Shown here in pieces: positions 24,112 through 34,516 of a stretch of DNA of 64,000 bases (the stretch's first letter is position 1; each line of letters opens with the position of its first letter). Where the stretch lies: positions 33,761 through 97,760 of the IMG/VR virus record IMGVR_UViG_3300043432_000083; one strand, written 5' to 3'. The notes beneath the pieces were generated by a model. It saw nothing but the letters and a program-made list of their open reading frames with translations. It was not told the DNA's origin and did not search any database. The position numbers and the translations under genes were made by a program. This DNA comes from a virus (Duplodnaviria > Caudoviricetes).

Positions 24112-24783
24112 CTATTTCTTGAACATCCGACCCATGCGGGCCGCTCCAGCATCCTGCTTGGCCTGTCCTTGCGGCGTGATACCCGCCGCCATGTCCTTCA
24201 GGTCCGGATTGGCGTCATAGATCGCCTTCAGCGCCACGCTGAACACCTTCTCATTCTTGTCCTTCATGTACTGTTTGGCCTGCTTGGTCGCTTCGGCCTT
24301 CGCCTCAGACGGTCGCAGCAGCTCAAGAGTCCCAGGCTGGCCCGCCGTCTCGGTCGCCTCGCCGCTGGACAGCTCCTTGAACAGGAAGGTCCCAGGCTTG
24401 CGCGACTCGAACAGCGACTTCAGGGCGTCCAGGTTGGACAGCTCCTTGCCGTTCTGCGAATAGGCTTTGACCTGCCCACCGGAGAGTGTGTCATACAAAT
24501 GCTCGACGATGGGCCGCTCAACCGGGAGGATCTTCAGATTGGACTCACTGGTCAGGGAGCTGAACCACGACTCCTTCTCGGTGACGCGGTTCCGCTCGGC
24601 CAGCTCCGCCTTTTCCTTCTCCAGCTCGACCACGCGCTGCTGGGCGGAGGTTTCCTTCTGGCTCAGCTCAGTGACCCTGGTGGAATGCTCCTGAATGGTG
24701 TCCGACAGTTCTTGATTCTTGTTCGTGAGTTCCGCGATCTGGGCCTGCAATGCCTCGACCGTCGGAGTCTGTCCGTCAGCCAT
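24112..24783 (-). CDS. Internally initiated scaffolding protein (in frame with protease)
   Basis: GAAGGAG RBS ~8 nt before in-frame ATG of MADGQTPTVEALQAQIAEL; Mu gpI/gpZ-type arrangement. Confidence 0.6.
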   Translation of the reverse strand: MADGQTPTVEALQAQIAELTNKNQELSDTIQEHSTRVTELSQKETSAQQRVVELEKEKAELAERNRVTEKESWFSSLTSESNLKILPVERPIVEHLYDTLSGGQVKAYSQNGKELSNLDALKSLFESRKPGTFLFKELSSGEATETAGQPGTLELLRPSEAKAEATKQAKQYMKDKNEKVFSVALKAIYDANPDLKDMAAGITPQGQAKQDAGAARMGRMFKK

Positions 24784-25749
24784 TGCGTGTGCTCCTTCCG
24801 TCGGGGCAGATGCGCCCACTGGGGTTGTGTCCGGGCCTAATTCGCCATCGGACTGCATGTTGTTTTTCGCTTTGCTGATCTGTATGGCTTTCTCCTGTGC
24901 TTGCGCCTCTGCTTCCGAACTATGGGTACCCAAGACCTTACCGGTAGACTCAGAGATCAGCACCCACTTGTCTCCTTGCTGCTCAATAATGTATCGCCTT
25001 TCTGCCTGTTGTCCAAATATCTGAAAGGCTTCGTCTGGTTCATAGAGATCGCAGACCTGTCCCGAGGCACATTCCCCTTCCACCAAAGAGCAGCAGGCAA
25101 TATATTGATTTGTGCCCTTGGGATCGGAAGGCCCACAAAAGAATTCACAATTGCCGCAGCAATCCATCAACCCATCATCATTTGCATCCTCGCCGCCTGC
25201 TCGATAATGAACTACGGCTTTGTCCTTCTTGTTAACAGTAACTGGAAGCGACCATTGCGCGGTGGATGGGGCAGACCCGTCCATCATGCCCATGTCATAC
25301 CGCTTGAACGGACGCTGCTCGCCATCGTACAGCGTCTCCAATGCCGCGAGGCTGGTCACAGCCGGGATGTCCGCGCCAAGCAGTGAGAGCGCCTTGACAA
25401 CCCGTGGCCATGTCTTGCCATTGCAACTGTAGTCCCAATATATCTCTGCCGACACCCTATTGTATGCGCGCCGTTTGATCGCTTGGTACACCTGCTTCGG
25501 CAGATCGGTCAGGTCGCAGTAGAGCTTGTCCCCGATGCGCCGGAGGTTCCTCACCCAGCCGATGGCAGGCATCCCGTCCGACTGGGCCAAGGGCTGTGAG
25601 GCATCGTGCCCCAGCTTCATCGGCGGATCGAATCCGACCTGTCCGAAGGCAGCGACCATATGGTCCAGATCCTGCTCGGAATAAACATCACGATTCCACG
25701 TGCCAACGCTGAAGATGGGCACCTGTTTTAGCTCAAAGGTTTCACTCAC
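24112..25749 (-). CDS. Prohead protease/scaffold (Mu gpI-like) with inserted domains
   Basis: IF.VGTW, PMKLGH, PAIGWV..L, Y.RVSAEI, LSLLGADIPAV; C-terminal coiled coil. Confidence 0.88.
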   Translation of the reverse strand: MSETFELKQVPIFSVGTWNRDVYSEQDLDHMVAAFGQVGFDPPMKLGHDASQPLAQSDGMPAIGWVRNLRRIGDKLYCDLTDLPKQVYQAIKRRAYNRVSAEIYWDYSCNGKTWPRVVKALSLLGADIPAVTSLAALETLYDGEQRPFKRYDMGMMDGSAPSTAQWSLPVTVNKKDKAVVHYRAGGEDANDDGLMDCCGNCEFFCGPSDPKGTNQYIACCSLVEGECASGQVCDLYEPDEAFQIFGQQAERRYIIEQQGDKWVLISESTGKVLGTHSSEAEAQAQEKAIQISKAKNNMQSDGELGPDTTPVGASAPTEGAHAMADGQTPTVEALQAQIAELTNKNQELSDTIQEHSTRVTELSQKETSAQQRVVELEKEKAELAERNRVTEKESWFSSLTSESNLKILPVERPIVEHLYDTLSGGQVKAYSQNGKELSNLDALKSLFESRKPGTFLFKELSSGEATETAGQPGTLELLRPSEAKAEATKQAKQYMKDKNEKVFSVALKAIYDANPDLKDMAAGITPQGQAKQDAGAARMGRMFKK

Positions 25750-27566: not shown

Positions 27567-30377
27567 CTATGCCGCCTTCAACACAGTGATGCCGAACTTG
27601 TGCTCTATCGGCGCCCAGACTATCGGATTGATGTAAGCGCTCTTCGCCACCGACGGCGTGTTCCGCAGTGTGCTGGACACTTGCTTCGCGACATTGGCGA
27701 CCAGTTTCTTCGCCTCGGTCTTGGTCGTCGGTGGAGGGGCAGACTTCAAGGCTCGTTGCGCCACGCTGGTCCCGATCAGTGTGCGTAGGTCCTTCGCAGA
27801 GCATTTGCCATATCCCTTGAGATAGCCATTGACCTGTCCTGCCGAAACCGAAAAGACTTTGTCGGAACCCGACTTACCTACCAAGCGGGATCCGATGGCT
27901 GAAGCCAATGTTGGATCGGTGATCGTTCCTTGCCATGCCATCCCTTTCTTGCCGATGAAGTCGAATTTCACAATGTCTCCAGTGACTGTTAAGTGTCGAG
28001 CTTCCAAGGTTGTGGCGCCATACGCTTTGACATTGGCCTGGGTGTCGGCATCTGAGCCGACGCGCATCGCGGTCGCCAATATCAAGCCGGTGACCACCGC
28101 CTCCTCTTTGCCTTTGGCCAGGTCTTGCTCGACGCCCCGCACCAGCTTCGGATAGACCTTGCTCAGCTCCGCCACCCGCTGGAACTTCGCCGCCGCCCGC
28201 TCTCCGGTCGCCTTGGTGCTGTAGAGATACTGCTGACGACCTTTGCTGTCAATGCCAGTGGCTTGCAAAGCACTATTCGGATTATCGCTCACTTCCACAC
28301 CAGTCCATTGCGGTGGAATATGCAGTGCTTTAATCCGATCCAAGGCGTCTCTATCAGTGATAACCTGCCCGTCCCCGCCCACGAAGGCGCGTCCGCCGAC
28401 CTGATACTCATCGCTGACAGCAGCTCCGGCTCCCTCAACGGCGGTCCACTTGCCTGACTCGTCACGTGCCTGATCCGGGTTGAAGTCGTAGTCCCGCGAG
28501 GCGTGATCGCCGCAGAAGCCGCGTCCAGACAGCTCGATGCCCTTGGCTACTTCAGACGGCGTGATGTACTGCACAGGCCCCTCGTCGCGGGTGATGGGCG
28601 TCCATAGGCTTCGGCAGTTGTAATGGCGCGGTGGGCTGAGTCGATCTTCTTCTGGACTCCCTGGCCGCATGATCTTCTGATCCAGATAGTGACAGACCTC
28701 GGTGGTCCTGGCATCCAAGATCGCGCTGTACTGCATTCCGATAATGAAGCCCGACTCGACCTCCGGCGCAAACATCGCCTTCCGGCCCTCGTTGAGCGCC
28801 TCGATGGTGTTGGTCCGCACCATTGTCTCCAGCCGGTACGGGGTCAGCAGCTTCTCGTCGATGGCCTGATCCGGGTCTCCCAGCCAGGGCAGGAACACAT
28901 CGGACAGGGCCTGCTGCACGTCCCGCAGCGGGAGACCCTGCTTGATCGCGTCGTACAGCACAGCTTTGGCGTCGGACAGGATCGGGTCGCGGAGCTGGGC
29001 ACCCCACAGGGACGCTTTGGACTCGAAGAACTCCAACGCCTTCTCCGGCGGCAGGCCCTCCAGGGTATGGCGGACTTGATAGTCCTTCGCCTTCTGCCGC
29101 TTCAGCTCAGCTTGGGCATCCTTGCCACCCATGCGGAATGCCGCCCCCAGCACCTCCCGCAGCGTCGGCACCAACTGACCCAAGCCCCGCAGCTCCAGGT
29201 CATTGACCAGTTTGGTCGTCAGCTCCTTGCCGTTCAGCTTGCGGGTGATGAGGGCGATCAGCTTGTCCCGGCCCTGTGCCAAGATCGCACGGATACGCTG
29301 CTTGGACTGGGCCTCCAGCGCGTCCAGGTTGGTCCGAATAGCAACGAAGTCTACTTTGCGCTCATATTGGGTCAGGTCGCGGGGCAGGTCGGGAATGTCG
29401 GCGTAGTCGTGCTCATCACTTTCAGTATTGCTTCCTCCGCCATCCATCCACTTGCCACTGTCATCCCTAGCTTGGTTGGGGTCGAAGTCGTACTGCTTTT
29501 TTACTTTCAAGCCTTTTGCAGATACAAGAACTTCCTTATCCCCGCCTGCATTCAGATTTCCACTACTATATGCAGACAACAGAATATTTTTGATGGGGAC
29601 CTTCATTGCAACGACTATTCCTTTTTTGCCGGCATATTGTTTCGCTATTCGCAAACTTGATGTCCAAGATTCTACCGGATATCGAGTTTGCAGCACTTGC
29701 TTCACATCTTCAACCTTTCCAATTCCTCGATATAATACAATAGATTGTATTTTACCTCCTTCAGACATTCGCCATTGAGTATAAGCTATTCTCTTTATTG
29801 CATGGTCGGCTAATTTATCAAAATAGCGTTTACCCAATTGAGTCTTTCCCATAGTCCCTAGCAATGGAGAGCTGGCCCCGCGAGGCGTTCCTATATGTCC
29901 ACCAACTAATTTCTCAAATTCATGATATGTCTTATCCTGTGTTAATTCATTAAATAATTGATCCCTCCTATCCGAGGAATACCGACCAAAACTTTTATAC
30001 GCAGCTTCTATTCTATCTGAATTGATAAGGAGTAGGTGAGAATCTTGCCAGTTCTTGCCTACACCTTTCTCTTCGCTGCCTACACCACTACCACCACCCT
30101 CGGTCCACTTCCCATCCTCATCCCTGGCCTGGTCCGGATCGAAGTCGTACTGCTTGCCAGTCAACCGCTTCTTCAGCTCGGCCTTGACCTGCTCGGCGTC
30201 CCAGTCGGGATGCTCAACCACGATGGCCTGCGCCAACTTGAGGAGGTCTATTTTCGACTCGATGACGGAGACCTGCGTCGTCGGCTTGTCCTTACTGTAC
30301 ACCTTCACAGACTTGACTCGCCACCACGGCAGGCCCCCGTAGGTCTTCAGCCAGGTGCGATCGCTCGCCAGTGGCAT
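27567..30377 (-). CDS. MuF head morphogenesis protein fused to ADP-ribosyltransferase-like and DNA topoisomerase IB domains
   Basis: MuF core (RLETMVRTN, YSAILD.RTT..C..LD, PP.HYNCRS); ART R-S-E motifs (LYRG, ESWTSS, KEVLV); TopIB motifs (MRVG, FIGKKG, KDLRT, NTPSVAKSAYINP). Confidence 0.9.
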   Translation of the reverse strand: MPLASDRTWLKTYGGLPWWRVKSVKVYSKDKPTTQVSVIESKIDLLKLAQAIVVEHPDWDAEQVKAELKKRLTGKQYDFDPDQARDEDGKWTEGGGSGVGSEEKGVGKNWQDSHLLLINSDRIEAAYKSFGRYSSDRRDQLFNELTQDKTYHEFEKLVGGHIGTPRGASSPLLGTMGKTQLGKRYFDKLADHAIKRIAYTQWRMSEGGKIQSIVLYRGIGKVEDVKQVLQTRYPVESWTSSLRIAKQYAGKKGIVVAMKVPIKNILLSAYSSGNLNAGGDKEVLVSAKGLKVKKQYDFDPNQARDDSGKWMDGGGSNTESDEHDYADIPDLPRDLTQYERKVDFVAIRTNLDALEAQSKQRIRAILAQGRDKLIALITRKLNGKELTTKLVNDLELRGLGQLVPTLREVLGAAFRMGGKDAQAELKRQKAKDYQVRHTLEGLPPEKALEFFESKASLWGAQLRDPILSDAKAVLYDAIKQGLPLRDVQQALSDVFLPWLGDPDQAIDEKLLTPYRLETMVRTNTIEALNEGRKAMFAPEVESGFIIGMQYSAILDARTTEVCHYLDQKIMRPGSPEEDRLSPPRHYNCRSLWTPITRDEGPVQYITPSEVAKGIELSGRGFCGDHASRDYDFNPDQARDESGKWTAVEGAGAAVSDEYQVGGRAFVGGDGQVITDRDALDRIKALHIPPQWTGVEVSDNPNSALQATGIDSKGRQQYLYSTKATGERAAAKFQRVAELSKVYPKLVRGVEQDLAKGKEEAVVTGLILATAMRVGSDADTQANVKAYGATTLEARHLTVTGDIVKFDFIGKKGMAWQGTITDPTLASAIGSRLVGKSGSDKVFSVSAGQVNGYLKGYGKCSAKDLRTLIGTSVAQRALKSAPPPTTKTEAKKLVANVAKQVSSTLRNTPSVAKSAYINPIVWAPIEHKFGITVLKAA
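28446..28490 (-). repeat. Head-protein tag copy YDFNPDQARDESGKW (precedes TopIB)
   Basis: One of four 45-nt/15-aa copies. Confidence 0.92.
29448..29492 (-). repeat. Head-protein tag copy YDFDPNQARDDSGKW (between ART and MuF core)
   Basis: One of four 45-nt/15-aa copies. Confidence 0.92.
30105..30149 (-). repeat. Head-protein tag copy YDFDPDQARDEDGKW (precedes ART)
   Basis: One of four 45-nt/15-aa copies. Confidence 0.92.
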
Positions 30378-30619
30378 CAGGCGTTCCCCTTCTCGATCAG
30401 CAGCTTAGTGATCGGCGTCACCACGATCTGCCCGAACTGCGGAATGGTCGCCAAGGCATCATCCTTGACAGCAACAAAGTCTCCGCCTAACGCATTGCCC
30501 ATCGACACCGCAAGCGCATAGTCGACGAAGGTGCCGAGCTTCGTCCACAGCACTGCGTCTTCGGTCTGGGCCAGGAACTTGCCGACGATCCAAATCCCTT
30601 GGCTAGGCATTGATTTCAT
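30377..30619 (-). CDS. Small hypothetical protein between portal and MuF
   Basis: 80-aa ORF, stop overlaps MuF start. Confidence 0.6.
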   Translation of the reverse strand: MKSMPSQGIWIVGKFLAQTEDAVLWTKLGTFVDYALAVSMGNALGGDFVAVKDDALATIPQFGQIVVTPITKLLIEKGNA

Positions 30620-30622
30620 TTG

Positions 30623-33600
30623 TTAGGATCGTTGTGGCCATCGCTTCCATCCATACTCGTCTATTTTAGTCCCGTTTCTACCAATTGAATTAGGAACTAC
30701 TTCGCCAAAATATCTGTACTCACGCGCCCCTATCGATCCCAAAGTGGTATCGACAATTCTATCTGCTTTATCAAGATTCCATGCATGAAATGTTCGATCT
30801 GCTATAAAACTACCTGACGACTGCTTTTCCCAAATAGCACCAATTACAGTTCGAAAACCTTTCTGACGATTGGTTCGCGCGCTGTTATCTTGACATTGAC
30901 CTTGCCTACCTGGTGGGATATTTGGCGCTATCTGTGTCTGCTCTTGCCATTCTTTCGGTATTCTATAAGGACGAGATTTTGTCTCCTTTTTATCTCCACC
31001 ACCTGCACTCCCACCAGCAGTCCACTTCCCATCCTGATCTCTCGCCTGGTTGGGGTCGAAGTCGTAGGACTTCTTCATTGCCTCTACGATCACAGCGTCC
31101 AGCTCATTGTCCTGCGGTATAGCTGTTCCGTCCTCAGTCGGCGCCATAACTCCTACTTGCCCTGCTCCGGTCTGCTCTACCTTGGCTGCCTCGATGTCCT
31201 CTGCCGACTTCTCAGGGAACTCGGTGATCAATCGAATATGCGCCTCATCCTCCGGCGTGCTGGTCACGCCCCCTGCTGCAATGGCCTGGAGCCACAAGGT
31301 CAGCAAATTCGCCTTGTCCGACTCCGTGAACGGCAGGAACACGAACTTGGGATAGTCCTCCACTTGATAGTTCAAGTCCACCAAGCGTCGGATCACTTGC
31401 TCTCCCATCACCGTCTCAGCCAAATCCCGCTGGAGCTTCTCGATGATCAGGATGAAGACGTCGAAGTGCTTCTTCGCCTGCCCATAGCTGCCGGTGTCCC
31501 CCTGAGCGCTCAAGCCCAGCAGGTTCGGCAGCAACAAGGAGCGGGCGATGGCCATGTCACACAGCGCAAAGGTCCGCTCGAATACCGAGGAGCCCTGAGC
31601 GCTGATGCCACTGGTCGGGAATTGCAAGGTGATGAAGTCAGGATGAACATAGGAGGTGGCGGCCTGAAGATTCTCTAAGGAGGTCCGCACATCATCCACT
31701 GTCCCTTCTGGCACCATCCCAGAGGAGGGGACAATGCCCTCGGCAAGAGGGACGCTGTTTCCGGACCAACAGGCTTTCCCGTTCCTCCGCACATATACCA
31801 GATGATGCGGCGGGACCGTCACGCAGTAGATCATGCCAGAATAGTCCATCCAGGACCGCCTATCGTCTGGCCTATTGCAGAATGATGCCCCAATCCGAGC
31901 CTCATTTCTGCTGACGGCATACAGCGGAGAACCATCAGGACAAGTTGTATTCCGCTTCTTGACTCCAGCCCACCCACACTTCAAGATGATCTCCTGTACA
32001 TCATCCGCCAATCGCTCTGATTTCGTGCAATACCCTTGATCGCTTCCGTCACCCAGCCATAAAGCATCAAGCAGAATTCGTAATTGTCGTTGAGATATTT
32101 GCTTCAATTCAATGGGAACAAACTTGTCCCCAGCCTTCCCGAATTGCAGCAAATATTCGAAGAGCTGGCGGTCCTTGATCGTGAATGTCCGCATCCCATG
32201 CTTGTCAAGACTATCCTGCGCGTGAAGTCCGGCGGCGGAAATCCATGAGGCGATTCTATCTGCATCAGGACCGTTTTTCTGGCCGATCAACACCCTTTTG
32301 CTTCCACCGGGTGTTTCATATGCACATCCTTCTGCCAGCCAGACACCAAAGAACCGAAGCCAATCATCCATCGGCATTGTACGCTCTGGATAATCCAGCG
32401 TCCGAACTCCTTTGGTCAAGCCAAGATGATTCGAAGTCTGGTATTTCACAGTCAAGGCAGGCAAAGTAAAATATTCTTGTTCTACTCCGTGCCATATCGC
32501 ATCCCGCTTGTACGCCACACTTCGAGGCAGGTCCTTCGCCTCAATGAACCGGAACCGATAGTCCGGCCTGTCACGCAGATTCGTCTCGGTCGAGACCCAC
32601 ATCCGATGATTCGGCGTCACCAGCAGATCGATGTATCGCCCGCCCTGATGCAGCATCTTACCGCGATAGTGATCCGCGAATGTGTCTGTGACTGATCGGT
32701 ATTCCATTTCCCCGGTGTCCGGACTCAATGTAGCAACCTTGTCCCCGACCTTTGGCTCCGAAATATTTCTCCATCCCTGCTCCGTCAGGATCTCTGTGTC
32801 ATCCGAATAGCAATACCGATCAAGGAACATGCCCAGCCAGGTCCAGGCATTCGTCTTCAGCCACCAGGCGCGATACGCCGCACGAAGATCGGAGGTGCCA
32901 TATTGATTCTGATGCTCCCCCATGTAGCTCATCAGGGCAAACTTCTCGGTAGGAAGTCGCTTGCCCCATTGCTCGATGCCATCCGGCAAAAGGTTGTCAT
33001 GGCCATCCGTCACGAAGAGGAAGCCATGTGGGAGCCTGGACTTGATCGACTTCAGGCCCAGCTTCCCGTTATAGGGACCACTGTCCAGTTGACGGTACAG
33101 CAGCTCGCTAACACTGAAGCCGTATGCAAGTGAACAATTATGAAGAAACACAGAATTTGCTACAAAGTTCTGCACTTCTGGCACATGCATGTCATACACA
33201 TCAGCAAATCCCCAAGGTTCAATAGAGATCACTTCATGATTGTCCCCTTGAGTTTGTACAGCCCTTTGCTTTTCATGGTAAGCCAACATAGCCAGGCGTT
33301 GGCTTCTCCCTTTCTTACGCCGCATATCGTCTGTCCAAATGCGCTTTCGATTTGCGTCAGCAAGCTTGGCTTTTCGCTCCGGAGTCCAAGCAGCTTTGAA
33401 TCCAGATCGCATCCGATCAACTATTTTTGCATCTCCCCACAAGGCACGACTCTGACGCGAAAGACGCGCTCGCTGATTAGGTAAAGCCATAGTCTCAATC
33501 TGCTTTTCCCTCGCGCGTCGGACCCAATCAGCTCCGGCAGCCAATCCCTCTGCCTTGGCCTTGAGCATAGCCTTAACATGATTTTGTAATTCCTGCTCTG

Positions 33601-34516
33601 TCATCTTTGACAAACGATTGCGGGTGTGCTCGCTAATATGTCTACCGTGCCCTTTGATCTCCAAGTTTTCAGGAGCATCATCCGCTTTTTCCTCATTCCG
33701 ATGGTGTACAGCAGAACCTTCCGGAACTGGCCCACACACCTCTGTATAGACCCAGTTAGCCCTCTTACACTGTCTCTCGTGTGGAGGCTTGATCCGAACA
33801 TACCCATCTTTGCTTCTCTGCTGATCAAATGGCATCAGCCGATCTCCCGATCTCAACAGACCAGCTCGTTTGTAACTACCATTACGAAGCAAAAAGGGGT
33901 GATTATCAGTGCAAATAATAGAATCCTCTTTCCATACAAATCCCCATTTCCGATTACCAGTCCGCCACCGATATGTCACACGTATGCATGGCGCATTCTG
34001 CTTACTCAACCACACTTTGCTAGCTCTCGCAAGCGTCATGCGTCCATTAACATAACTATAAACCAGAGGAGTTGTCCCTACAAGCTCTCTGATCGGCCTA
34101 TCTCCGTCCGGAGAGTGAATAATAGTATCTCCATGCAGACATAGCATCTCTTGCAGGTTCTGGTCCAGGCACCCGTCCATCTTGGTGAAGTTCCACTTGA
34201 CAAACTCCGCCACCTCCACACTGTCCGACTTGTCATCCACTGGCTCGATGTCCCATCCGGTGGACAGGATGGCATGCTTCTTCATGGCGAGGGCGGCCTT
34301 GACGGCATCATCGGTCTGCATCTTCTGGTAGATGGACAGGCCCTTGCGGCCCACGAGGTCATCGGAATTGACTTGTCGCTCTAGGTTGGAGGGGAAGAAG
34401 ATAGCACGGCGGTTGACGCTGACTTCGGTGAGGAGCTGCTGAAGAGAGGCTCCTCCCGACTGAGGAGTCGAGGTCCGCGTCCTCCGAGGGGGAGCCTGCT
34501 GAGCCGCTACAGACAC
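30623..34516 (-). CDS. Portal protein (Mu gp29/DUF935-like) with two inteins and a C-terminal extra domain
   Basis: YQKM.TD..V, YGFSVSE, YGTSDLRAAY..W, GSYGQA..H, IRRLVDLNY...YPKF; about 610 aa after splicing. Confidence 0.9.
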   Translation of the reverse strand: MSVAAQQAPPRRTRTSTPQSGGASLQQLLTEVSVNRRAIFFPSNLERQVNSDDLVGRKGLSIYQKMQTDDAVKAALAMKKHAILSTGWDIEPVDDKSDSVEVAEFVKWNFTKMDGCLDQNLQEMLCLHGDTIIHSPDGDRPIRELVGTTPLVYSYVNGRMTLARASKVWLSKQNAPCIRVTYRWRTGNRKWGFVWKEDSIICTDNHPFLLRNGSYKRAGLLRSGDRLMPFDQQRSKDGYVRIKPPHERQCKRANWVYTEVCGPVPEGSAVHHRNEEKADDAPENLEIKGHGRHISEHTRNRLSKMTEQELQNHVKAMLKAKAEGLAAGADWVRRAREKQIETMALPNQRARLSRQSRALWGDAKIVDRMRSGFKAAWTPERKAKLADANRKRIWTDDMRRKKGRSQRLAMLAYHEKQRAVQTQGDNHEVISIEPWGFADVYDMHVPEVQNFVANSVFLHNCSLAYGFSVSELLYRQLDSGPYNGKLGLKSIKSRLPHGFLFVTDGHDNLLPDGIEQWGKRLPTEKFALMSYMGEHQNQYGTSDLRAAYRAWWLKTNAWTWLGMFLDRYCYSDDTEILTEQGWRNISEPKVGDKVATLSPDTGEMEYRSVTDTFADHYRGKMLHQGGRYIDLLVTPNHRMWVSTETNLRDRPDYRFRFIEAKDLPRSVAYKRDAIWHGVEQEYFTLPALTVKYQTSNHLGLTKGVRTLDYPERTMPMDDWLRFFGVWLAEGCAYETPGGSKRVLIGQKNGPDADRIASWISAAGLHAQDSLDKHGMRTFTIKDRQLFEYLLQFGKAGDKFVPIELKQISQRQLRILLDALWLGDGSDQGYCTKSERLADDVQEIILKCGWAGVKKRNTTCPDGSPLYAVSRNEARIGASFCNRPDDRRSWMDYSGMIYCVTVPPHHLVYVRRNGKACWSGNSVPLAEGIVPSSGMVPEGTVDDVRTSLENLQAATSYVHPDFITLQFPTSGISAQGSSVFERTFALCDMAIARSLLLPNLLGLSAQGDTGSYGQAKKHFDVFILIIEKLQRDLAETVMGEQVIRRLVDLNYQVEDYPKFVFLPFTESDKANLLTLWLQAIAAGGVTSTPEDEAHIRLITEFPEKSAEDIEAAKVEQTGAGQVGVMAPTEDGTAIPQDNELDAVIVEAMKKSYDFDPNQARDQDGKWTAGGSAGGGDKKETKSRPYRIPKEWQEQTQIAPNIPPGRQGQCQDNSARTNRQKGFRTVIGAIWEKQSSGSFIADRTFHAWNLDKADRIVDTTLGSIGAREYRYFGEVVPNSIGRNGTKIDEYGWKRWPQRS
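31022..31066 (-). repeat. Head-protein tag copy YDFDPNQARDQDGKW (precedes portal C-terminal domain)
   Basis: One of four 45-nt/15-aa copies. Confidence 0.92.
31757..32812 (-). mobile_element. Intein 2 in portal (352 aa, LAGLIDADG-type endonuclease)
   Basis: Begins CYSDDTEILTEQGW, block B VTPNH, FFGVWLAEG and LDALWLGDG, ends ACWSGN|S. Confidence 0.92.
33137..34141 (-). mobile_element. Intein 1 in portal (335 aa, HNH-type endonuclease)
   Basis: Begins CLHGDT, block B CTDNHPF, VHHRNE.K.D..PENL, VYDMHV..VQNFVAN, ends FLHN|C. Confidence 0.92.

Follow-up and report, generated by a model that had tools for sequence, protein, structure and literature searches.

In this study we analysed a 64,000-nt window (the whole stretch of DNA, positions 33,761 to 97,760 of a single 97,760-bp contig with 54.7% G+C, IMG/VR record IMGVR_UViG_3300043432_000083) from a virus of the Caudoviricetes. 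Its subject is a 15-residue peptide, Y-D-F-[DN]-P-[DN]-Q-A-R-D-x-x-G-K-W, which recurs in two neighbouring minus-strand genes encoding a Mu-type portal and a MuF protein (Table 1). This peptide, hereafter called the tag, is present in four copies, one in the portal at residue 1151 with about 130 residues beyond it, and three in the MuF protein at residues 76, 295 and 629. As the original prediction had claimed, every copy marks the edge of a domain, and a Gly-rich linker comes next (TAGGSAGGG, TEGGGSG, MDGGGS and TAVEGAGAA). According to Pfam the boundaries fall after Portal_Mu, on both sides of Phage_Mu_F and ahead of Top1B_N_bact/Topoisom_I (residues 665-913). A fifth copy was not found when all six frames of the entire 97,760-bp genome were searched, and the loose core RD..G[KR][WFY] gave just two extra matches there, each with stop codons in its immediate context. 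The proposed layout of the MuF protein, leader-tag-ART-tag-MuF-tag-TopIB (ART, ADP-ribosyltransferase; TopIB, type IB topoisomerase), is supported by Pfam and by profile comparison of the ART-like domain. The protein is linked to the virion apparatus by PF04233 within its own chain, by the portal gene that adjoins upstream and the head protease gene downstream, and by synteny in a related contig, L239. The 80-aa open reading frame (ORF) that separates portal and MuF, orf80, has no family match in Pfam or PHROG.

Table 1. Features of the tag-bearing region and of the head protease gene, in coordinates of the window.
Feature	Position	Strand	Evidence or remark
Portal gene, 1297 aa, Mu-type: two inteins, tag, Gly linker, ~120-aa domain	30623..34516	-	Portal_Mu 5.6e-39; Intein_splicing, HNH_3, Hint_2; phrog_113 portal
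Tag copy at portal C-terminus, YDFDPNQARDQDGKW	31022..31066	-	GC3 0.80, backbone-like
Portal cargo: Gly linker + ~120 aa, AT-rich	30623..31021	-	GC 0.44, GC3 0.29
80-aa ORF (orf80) separating portal and MuF genes	30377..30619	-	tblastn: L239:9765-9908, 37.5% identity, 48 aa
MuF polyvalent protein, 936 aa: leader-tag-ART-like-tag-MuF core-tag-TopIB	27567..30377	-	Phage_Mu_F 472-590; Top1B_N_bact 665-710; Topoisom_I 722-913
MuF leader, aa 1-76	30150..30377	-	first 23 residues kept in P0002-P0008
Tag 1, YDFDPDQARDEDGKW	30105..30149	-	GC3 0.80
AT-rich cargo: Gly linker + divergent R-S-E ADP-ribosyltransferase-like domain	29493..30104	-	GC3 0.31
Tag 2, YDFDPNQARDDSGKW	29448..29492	-	GC3 0.73
MuF (SPP1 gp7 / Mu F) core	28491..29447	-	PF04233; 47-71% identical to P0002-P0009
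Tag 3, YDFNPDQARDESGKW	28446..28490	-	motif match
Cargo: type IB topoisomerase	27567..28445	-	PF21338 + PF01028
Head maturation protease fused to coiled-coil scaffold-like tail; candidate reader	24112..25749	-	phrog_976 1.6e-31; phrog_3894

Any two of the four copies differ in 6-9 codons, 4-6 of which are synonymous; the invariant Ala is written with four codons and the invariant Arg with three (CGT, AGG, AGA). Because the copies are 71-87% identical in DNA and carry synonymous codons at invariant residues, it is the tag peptide that is conserved and not a recent DNA repeat. Base composition follows the same boundaries. The G+C content of third codon positions (GC3) is 0.73-0.87 in the tags, the leader, the MuF core, the portal core and orf80, 0.67 in the topoisomerase, and far below this in the ART-like segment and the portal tail (Table 1). 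Read codon by codon, the low GC3 sets in directly past the tag Trp in both AT-rich inserts, and the ART-like stretch stops directly ahead of the Tyr of the next tag. GC3 thus bears out the earlier claim that these two cargos are AT-richer than the portal and MuF cores, with the shift at the tags.

Sequence comparison supports the assignment of the cargo between tags 1 and 2, about 200 aa long, as an ADP-ribosyltransferase-like domain of the R-S-E clade. A local iterative search collected 40 copies of this domain in tag-bearing proteins, up to five per protein, in which Y-R-G, S-S-W and E-x-E show little or no variation (R in 40/40, S in 39/40 and the second E in 38/39); the copy of the window reads YRG, ESW and D-K-E, its first acidic residue being Asp. 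When aligned by hhalign with a family seeded by the ART of L239, which includes proteins annotated as PF03496, it reached a probability of 96.5% (E 9e-10). The motif alignment and this comparison support the original call of an ART. Placement of the segment in ART-PolyVal was rejected, with an hhalign probability of 1%, in favour of the R-S-E clade. An AlphaFold2 model of the segment was weak (predicted local distance difference test, pLDDT, 47 for the whole and 54-77 across most of its core). In Foldseek nothing reached E<=0.001, and the weak matches (E>=0.019) were mostly ARTs, namely ART2.2, ExoS, iota Ia, CDTa, C3larvin and TreTu. In a set of 5.8 billion proteins, the ART-like segment and the portal tail found themselves alone or nothing. 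The portal tail, for which a Cys protease-like domain of the papain/transglutaminase kind had been suggested, had no match in Pfam or PHROG and no sequence relatives were found for it; there is a weak Atlas lead to YunG-like clusters alone, and an AlphaFold2 model made without an alignment was unusable (pLDDT 33.6). In the third cargo, both the N-terminal domain (PF21338, 2.7e-14) and the catalytic core (PF01028, 9.6e-25) of a type IB topoisomerase were matched. A single 936-aa protein of the polyvalent kind therefore joins an R-S-E ART-like domain, a TopIB and a MuF domain.

Proteins with a MuF core 47-71% identical to that of the window differ in what they carry. At the C-terminal slot, P0004, P0009 and P0007 have the tag, or an HPR variant of it, and a TopIB; P0008, P0006 and P0003 stop at the would-be start of the tag or at most 14 residues from it; and P0002 and P0005 carry an extension of about 210 aa that has no tag. 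The tag and the TopIB at the end of MuF are thus either both there or both missing, as one unit, and this arrangement recurs in L118, L024, L045 and L107 at 32-38% identity. P0003 has a 218-aa tag-headed insertion inside MuF, and the N-terminal slot, which holds the divergent R-S-E ART-like domain in the window, is occupied by ART-PolyVal in P0002. The contig L239 (82 kb) is syntenic with the window in the order portal, orf80, MuF, orf292 and protease, with orf80 kept at the same place and protein identities from ~37% (orf80) to 69% (orf292). Its portal stops where the tag of the window starts, and the next, overlapping ORF encodes a classical ART, preceded by a short leader, the tag GGFDPNQPRNEVGEW and a Gly linker. 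The portals of L240 and L243 also end where the tag of the window begins, without any cassette. From the contents of these slots and these three portals it follows that the tag is where modules come and go, become separate genes or give way to others. Cargo exchange at the tag, on which the original prediction depended, is thus seen among relatives (P0002-P0009 and L239).

The same proteins vary at two further points. The first 23 codons of the MuF gene (30309-30377) encode MPLA[ST][ND]..WLK.YG.LPWWR, a peptide kept in P0001-P0008, in which the stretch linking it to the MuF core is variable throughout; this N-terminal peptide may be the true anchor or assembly signal of this MuF lineage. Residues 47-73 of the leader (30159-30239), VVEHPDWDAEQVKAELKK, resemble a stretch found within the MuF core of P0002, P0003, P0005 and P0006, and the core of the window is without such a VVEHPDWDAEQVKAELKK-like segment, which suggests that this part of the leader is a relocated piece of MuF. 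The head gene that houses inteins differs from one related phage to another (portal of the window, 31757-34141; L239:9866-13831; P0004, P0006 and P0009). In the window, the portal contains two inteins and MuF is free of them. At 524 and 463 aa, the portal ORFs of L239 and L240 could not accommodate both inteins of the window, and Hint/intein domains are found in the MuF proteins P0004 (L239), P0006 and P0009.

Outside this lineage the tag has many relatives. Used as a DNA pattern, the strict 15-residue form had no match in IMG/VR. Close relatives were not found among isolated phages, which gave remote MuF and TopIB matches alone; the MuF core retrieved no related loci from viral contigs, and a consensus-like 30-aa tag retrieved nothing from isolate phages by tblastn, for which the query was probably too short to reach significance. 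None of the four tags of the window matched a Pfam model, even at E<=10. A degenerate DNA scan with [DN]PxQ[AP]RDxxG[KR..]W, in turn, detected the motif in at least 118 viral contigs of IMG/VR and also in at least 120 contigs of bacterial genomes, with the family consensus [FY]-[DN]-P-x-Q-[PA]-R-D-x-x-G-[RKQ]-W-[TS]-x-GGGG. Positions left free by the pattern are conserved as well, since among 120 non-redundant viral instances an aromatic residue stands at -1 in 117, T or S past the Trp in 88, and then a Gly run follows; because of this the matches are true relatives and not chance hits. Six positions are invariant in 124 diverse instances, partly because the scan pattern fixed them. In a search space of 1.84 billion representative proteins, a 30-column profile of the family (A4) gave 3,187 matches at E<=1e-3, 448 at E<=1e-10 and 29 at E<=1e-30, in proteins of up to 3,849 aa with up to nine copies each. 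There is also a sister form, F-[DN]-E-x-x-HPRD-x-x-G-[KRQ]-F-[TS]-x-GGG, which occurs, again followed by the Gly linker, in at least 115 viral contigs (L245-L324) and, as Y-[DE]-F-[DN]-E-x-x-H-P-R-...-G-[KRQ]-F, at orthologous tag positions of the MuF relatives P0005, P0007 and P0008. The profile and DNA scans thus show that the PRDxxG[RK][WF] peptides of other phage head proteins, to which the original prediction pointed, do exist and are widespread. The tag is carried by phages of Alphaproteobacteria, Actinomycetes, Bacillota and Chloroflexota. Cultured strains in which tag loci occur include Bradyrhizobium elkanii WSM2783 (L154), Afipia clevelandensis ATCC 49720 (L153), Paramagnetospirillum caucaseum SO-1 (L125) and Sphingomonas gilva ZDH117 (L156).

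The company of the tag is that of the phage head. Tag-bearing viral ORFs were split at their tags and the pieces scanned against Pfam. Upstream pieces matched portals of four or five Pfam families (Phage_portal 7, Portal_Mu 7, Phage_portal_3 4, Phage_portal_2 1, P23-45 barrel 2), MuF (7), S78 prohead protease (2), Acb1 (2) and several ARTs. Downstream pieces matched ADPrib_exo_Tox (11), Zeta toxin (5), MuF (5), TopIB (4), PI3/PI4-kinase-like (4) and ART-PolyVal (3), and also REase toxins, NUDIX, 2H, PBECR3, DRAT and LPD39; a portal family is absent from the 25 commonest downstream families. The same repertoire of polyvalent-protein domains was present in 40 of the top library matches. Around 224 tag loci, for which the flanks were short and the bacterial genomes contain many unannotated small ORFs, the commonest neighbours were a DUF2213 protein, MuF, Bro-N, two TerL families and two capsid families. 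A tag protein of Bradyrhizobium elkanii lies in a prophage with TerL and lysozyme. On this evidence the tag, far from being scattered at random, accompanies head modules and stands ahead of variable domains, as had been supposed.

The position of the tag within proteins is equally regular. In the 148 best proteins, the first tag stands at a median position of 41, and in a quarter of them at residue 21 or before; in 95% the stretch beyond the last tag measures at least 132 aa (median 260), and successive tags are separated by a median of 228 aa, a domain-sized spacing. The HPRD form shows the same pattern, with 102 residues downstream at the 5th percentile. At least 25 complete free-standing ORFs can be started solely as M-(A)-(G)-[FY]-[DN]-P, and six of these tag-first ORFs adjoin MuF, portal or TerL; L029 has a portal, a MuF and a tag-first gene in succession. 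Because it is often N-terminal and almost never C-terminal, the tag heads the module that follows and is not the tail of the domain before it. We consider it highly probable that the tag is the header of swappable head-cargo cassettes.

Some header-bearing genes stand in tandem as small paralogs without a Pfam match (L190:373-1743; L162:1-5295); such arrays comprise three genes of 135-165 aa in a Bacillota metagenome-assembled genome and four genes in one of Hyphomicrobiales. A 163-aa tag-first protein (L109:7100-7588) gave a weak LPD39 match (24.8 bits, below the cutoff) with an alignment from residue 4, and part of the Pfam LPD39 model may overlap the header. On three contigs of 116-188 kb (L059, L063, L095) a 393-aa protein starts with MYNPLQARDPLGKW, after which come LRV/HEAT repeats; L007, L036 and L083 have this MYNPLQARDPLGKW start shortened to 26 aa.

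Three properties constrain the function of the header, in addition to its tie to head anchors. It serves the module that it heads, because it is retained when that module is a separate gene; it acts internally too, because it is under purifying selection amid fused domains; and the mechanism must suit varied head types, because the tag is found in phages with different terminase and capsid, and apparently protease, types. We propose that it would be a portable cassette header which opens each cargo module of virion-carried polyvalent effectors, with header, linker and downstream domain forming the unit of both function and evolution. Such cassettes are hung on the C-terminus of the portal, on MuF and sometimes on the prohead protease, are strung in series, or are kept as separate adjoining genes. 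The C-terminus of a portal faces the capsid interior. As a short linear motif, the header would be read in trans while the head assembles, serving as an address for loading or retention of the cargo and possibly marking where modules are separated. The ART-like enzyme, the TopIB and the portal-borne domain would then be carried inside the capsid and reach the host cell together with the phage DNA. The conserved coding stretch also coincides with the junctions at which cargo DNA is exchanged. That the header is a trans-read loading or retention address, possibly coupled to module separation, has in our estimate a probability of roughly 0.55; the loading, any cleavage, the ejection and the reader that it calls for are inferred.

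Several observations weigh against this address function. Cargo that is fused to the portal or to MuF would make a loading address redundant. Tag-bearing phages have differing terminase and capsid families and apparently differing protease families, so that a single conserved partner is hard to name, and when the ORFs of the 224 tag loci were clustered no universal neighbouring reader gene emerged, the largest family being present in 23 loci (~10%). The phrog_976 family of the head protease of the window, a candidate reader, is present in just one other tag locus, L180. Furthermore, many tag ORFs of bacterial genomes are small and unannotated, with head association checked for few, and the sets of top matches are skewed to multi-tag proteins and to the G+C-rich organisms favoured by the DNA pattern. 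A predicted complex of the MuF core with the tag profile scored 0.00 (mark 0.32), which by the rule of the method speaks neither for nor against binding.

Other functions can be conceived, the most serious being a purely proteolytic one, in which the prohead protease or another phage peptidase cuts at or next to each tag and frees the enzymes in the head, and no addressing takes place. The beads-on-a-string layout with its domain-sized spacing does resemble a viral polyprotein, the switch from one fused gene to two separate ones occurs immediately ahead of the tag (L029, L239), and the one to three residues before the aromatic are lineage-specific and uniform within a protein, as expected for P1-P3. 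Cleavage of head proteins has precedents, since gpH, the portal of Mu, undergoes C-terminal trimming, and in T4 both Alt and the internal proteins are substrates of gp21. We nevertheless regard a mere cut site as unlikely: at least 25 genes open with the tag, where there is nothing to remove, a quarter of the top proteins are tag-first, and one and the same motif occurs alongside S78 proteases, DUF2213 neighbours and the phrog_976 protease of the window. In addition, Pro follows both the conserved D/N and the conserved Q, an arrangement unfavourable for most endopeptidases.

A second alternative denies the tag any partner in trans and sees it as an inert junction or linker cap that persists because recombination homogenises the cassettes. 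It would account for the AT-rich inserts that begin right past the tag, one of which, the ART-like one, stops right before the next. It would also account for tags being more alike within a genome than across genomes, in peptide and in DNA. At non-fixed positions the identity is 0.52 between tags of one protein and 0.37 between tags of different proteins, a difference that none of 500 label shuffles matched, and the likeness is strongest in the three residues preceding the aromatic. All tags of the window are YDF and QARD, and all three of L239 are QPR; the DNA identity is 71-87% inside the window and 53-71% to L239. However, co-evolution with a partner predicts the same likeness within genomes, and exact DNA matches do not exceed 20 nt within this genome. 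The invariant residues have survived synonymous turnover (four Ala codons; CGT against AGG/AGA for Arg), and six positions invariant in 124 instances, although partly fixed by the pattern, point to selection on the peptide. A mere linker, moreover, need not head free-standing proteins, so that we find this explanation improbable. The same data bear on the proposal that the tag doubles as a 45-nt recombination handle: compositional breakpoints at the tags and the likeness within proteins speak for it, the identical runs of at most 20 nt, and at most 10 nt against L239, speak against it, and the case stays circumstantial.

The tag could instead act after delivery, by binding a conserved bacterial factor or offering a host-protease site that activates, localises or releases the effector. 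Near-invariance across four host groups would be easier to reconcile with a universal partner than with fast-evolving head proteins, and the motif is acidic and aromatic, like many docking motifs. Yet the association is with head anchors and head modules, MuF itself is tag-headed in five downstream segments and the present results point to no host factor, which makes a role in the infected cell very unlikely. Finally, self-cleavage at the invariant [DN]-Pro by Asp/Asn cyclisation, similar to N|PTH in FlhB/YscU, would need no reader and would suit unrelated head types, and [DN]-P is present in every QPRD-form instance, though fixed there by the search pattern; it is scarcely credible, as the sister form has [DN]-E at this place, 15 residues and a flexible linker would hardly supply the strained fold of known autocleaving sites, and N-terminal tags would shed merely 2-5 residues. 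The net acidic character of the motif led us to discard DNA binding, and 2A-like ribosome skipping was dropped because the tag also functions at the extreme N-terminus.

Among the weapons of a phage, effectors delivered by the virion arrive first at the host; they are hard to spot, their domains being diverse and often unannotated. The header, present in at least 3,187 protein clusters, would offer a sequence key for mining enzymes that are probably injected, anti-defence enzymes included (tagged cargo comprises Acb1, 2H, NUDIX and ARTs), and would explain the construction and reshuffling of such proteins. If it is a loading signal, it would also be a simple handle to pack chosen proteins into phage heads, and it makes the choice of minor cargo for encapsidation testable in phages outside the T4 group. 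It is tempting to go one step further, with a claim that we put forward tentatively and hold to be rather doubtful: header and HPRD..GRF form might together be a general capsid-cargo address code of tailed phages, read by a conserved component of the portal-MuF assembly nucleus. In that case the header would set, much like a signal peptide, which modules are loaded into the prohead and where they are separated, the injected proteome of thousands of uncultured phages would become readable from sequence, and about 20 added residues could load foreign proteins into heads.

Short peptides that sort or delimit unrelated cargo are known from other systems. Encapsulin cargo-loading peptides are short, conserved and usually C-terminal, and dock diverse enzymes by a flexible Gly/Pro-rich linker in a shell of HK97 fold; the combination of short peptide, flexible linker and diverse enzymes is shared as a structural analogy, whereas the C-terminal place and the consensus differ. 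VENN of CdiA and PxxxxDPxGL of Rhs proteins mark the point where a constant trunk gives way to an exchangeable toxin, and are discussed as recombination point and cleavage site. Their sequences are different and they serve secretion, not delivery by a virion, whereas the header precedes every module and can begin a free protein. The best functional analogy for a header that would be both loading signal and processing substrate is the T4 capsid-targeting sequence, a short N-terminal peptide on IPI-III and Alt that is removed by gp21, the cargo being injected with the DNA. As is proposed for the header, it addresses unrelated cargo to the prohead. The header, however, has no sequence similarity to it and no L/I-x-E cut rule in its consensus. 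No gp21 site was found and the protease of the window matches phrog_976/phrog_3894, with no T4-type family reported; and the T4 signal is lineage-restricted, whereas the header spans phages with differing terminase and capsid, and apparently protease, families.

Two further related systems are effector designs. MuF polymorphic toxins are described as an N-terminal MuF domain with one C-terminal toxin (Jamet et al., 2017, PMC5576092; Bxa, PMC11699363; Apk2). The C-terminal cargo of the window's protein, TopIB, is variable among relatives; however, MuF is internal and tag-headed, with an additional cargo slot N-terminal to it, and cargo is carried on both sides and on the portal. A junction peptide is not mentioned in PMC5576092 or PMC11699363. 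Polyvalent proteins of phages and conjugative elements (Iyer et al., 2017, PMC5512222), and the NAD/ADPr enzymes packaged in virions (PMC9503650), include ART, Zeta, TopIB-like, 2H, PBECR, NUDIX and ParB effectors fused to MuF, portal or the capsid-processing protease, which are predicted to be packaged and injected (PMC5512222; PMC9503650). Their Pfam repertoire is that of the tag-bearing proteins, and the text of PMC5512222 does not mention a header peptide or interdomain motif. The header looks specific to the virion branch of these proteins, because conjugation-type families are not among the commonest families of tag proteins. In the searches made, no relevant Pfam entry, PDB chain (with the tag profile) or literature description of the header peptide was found. 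The polyvalent design, with effectors fused to MuF and portal, is already known, and what appears to be undescribed is the header peptide that opens its modules.

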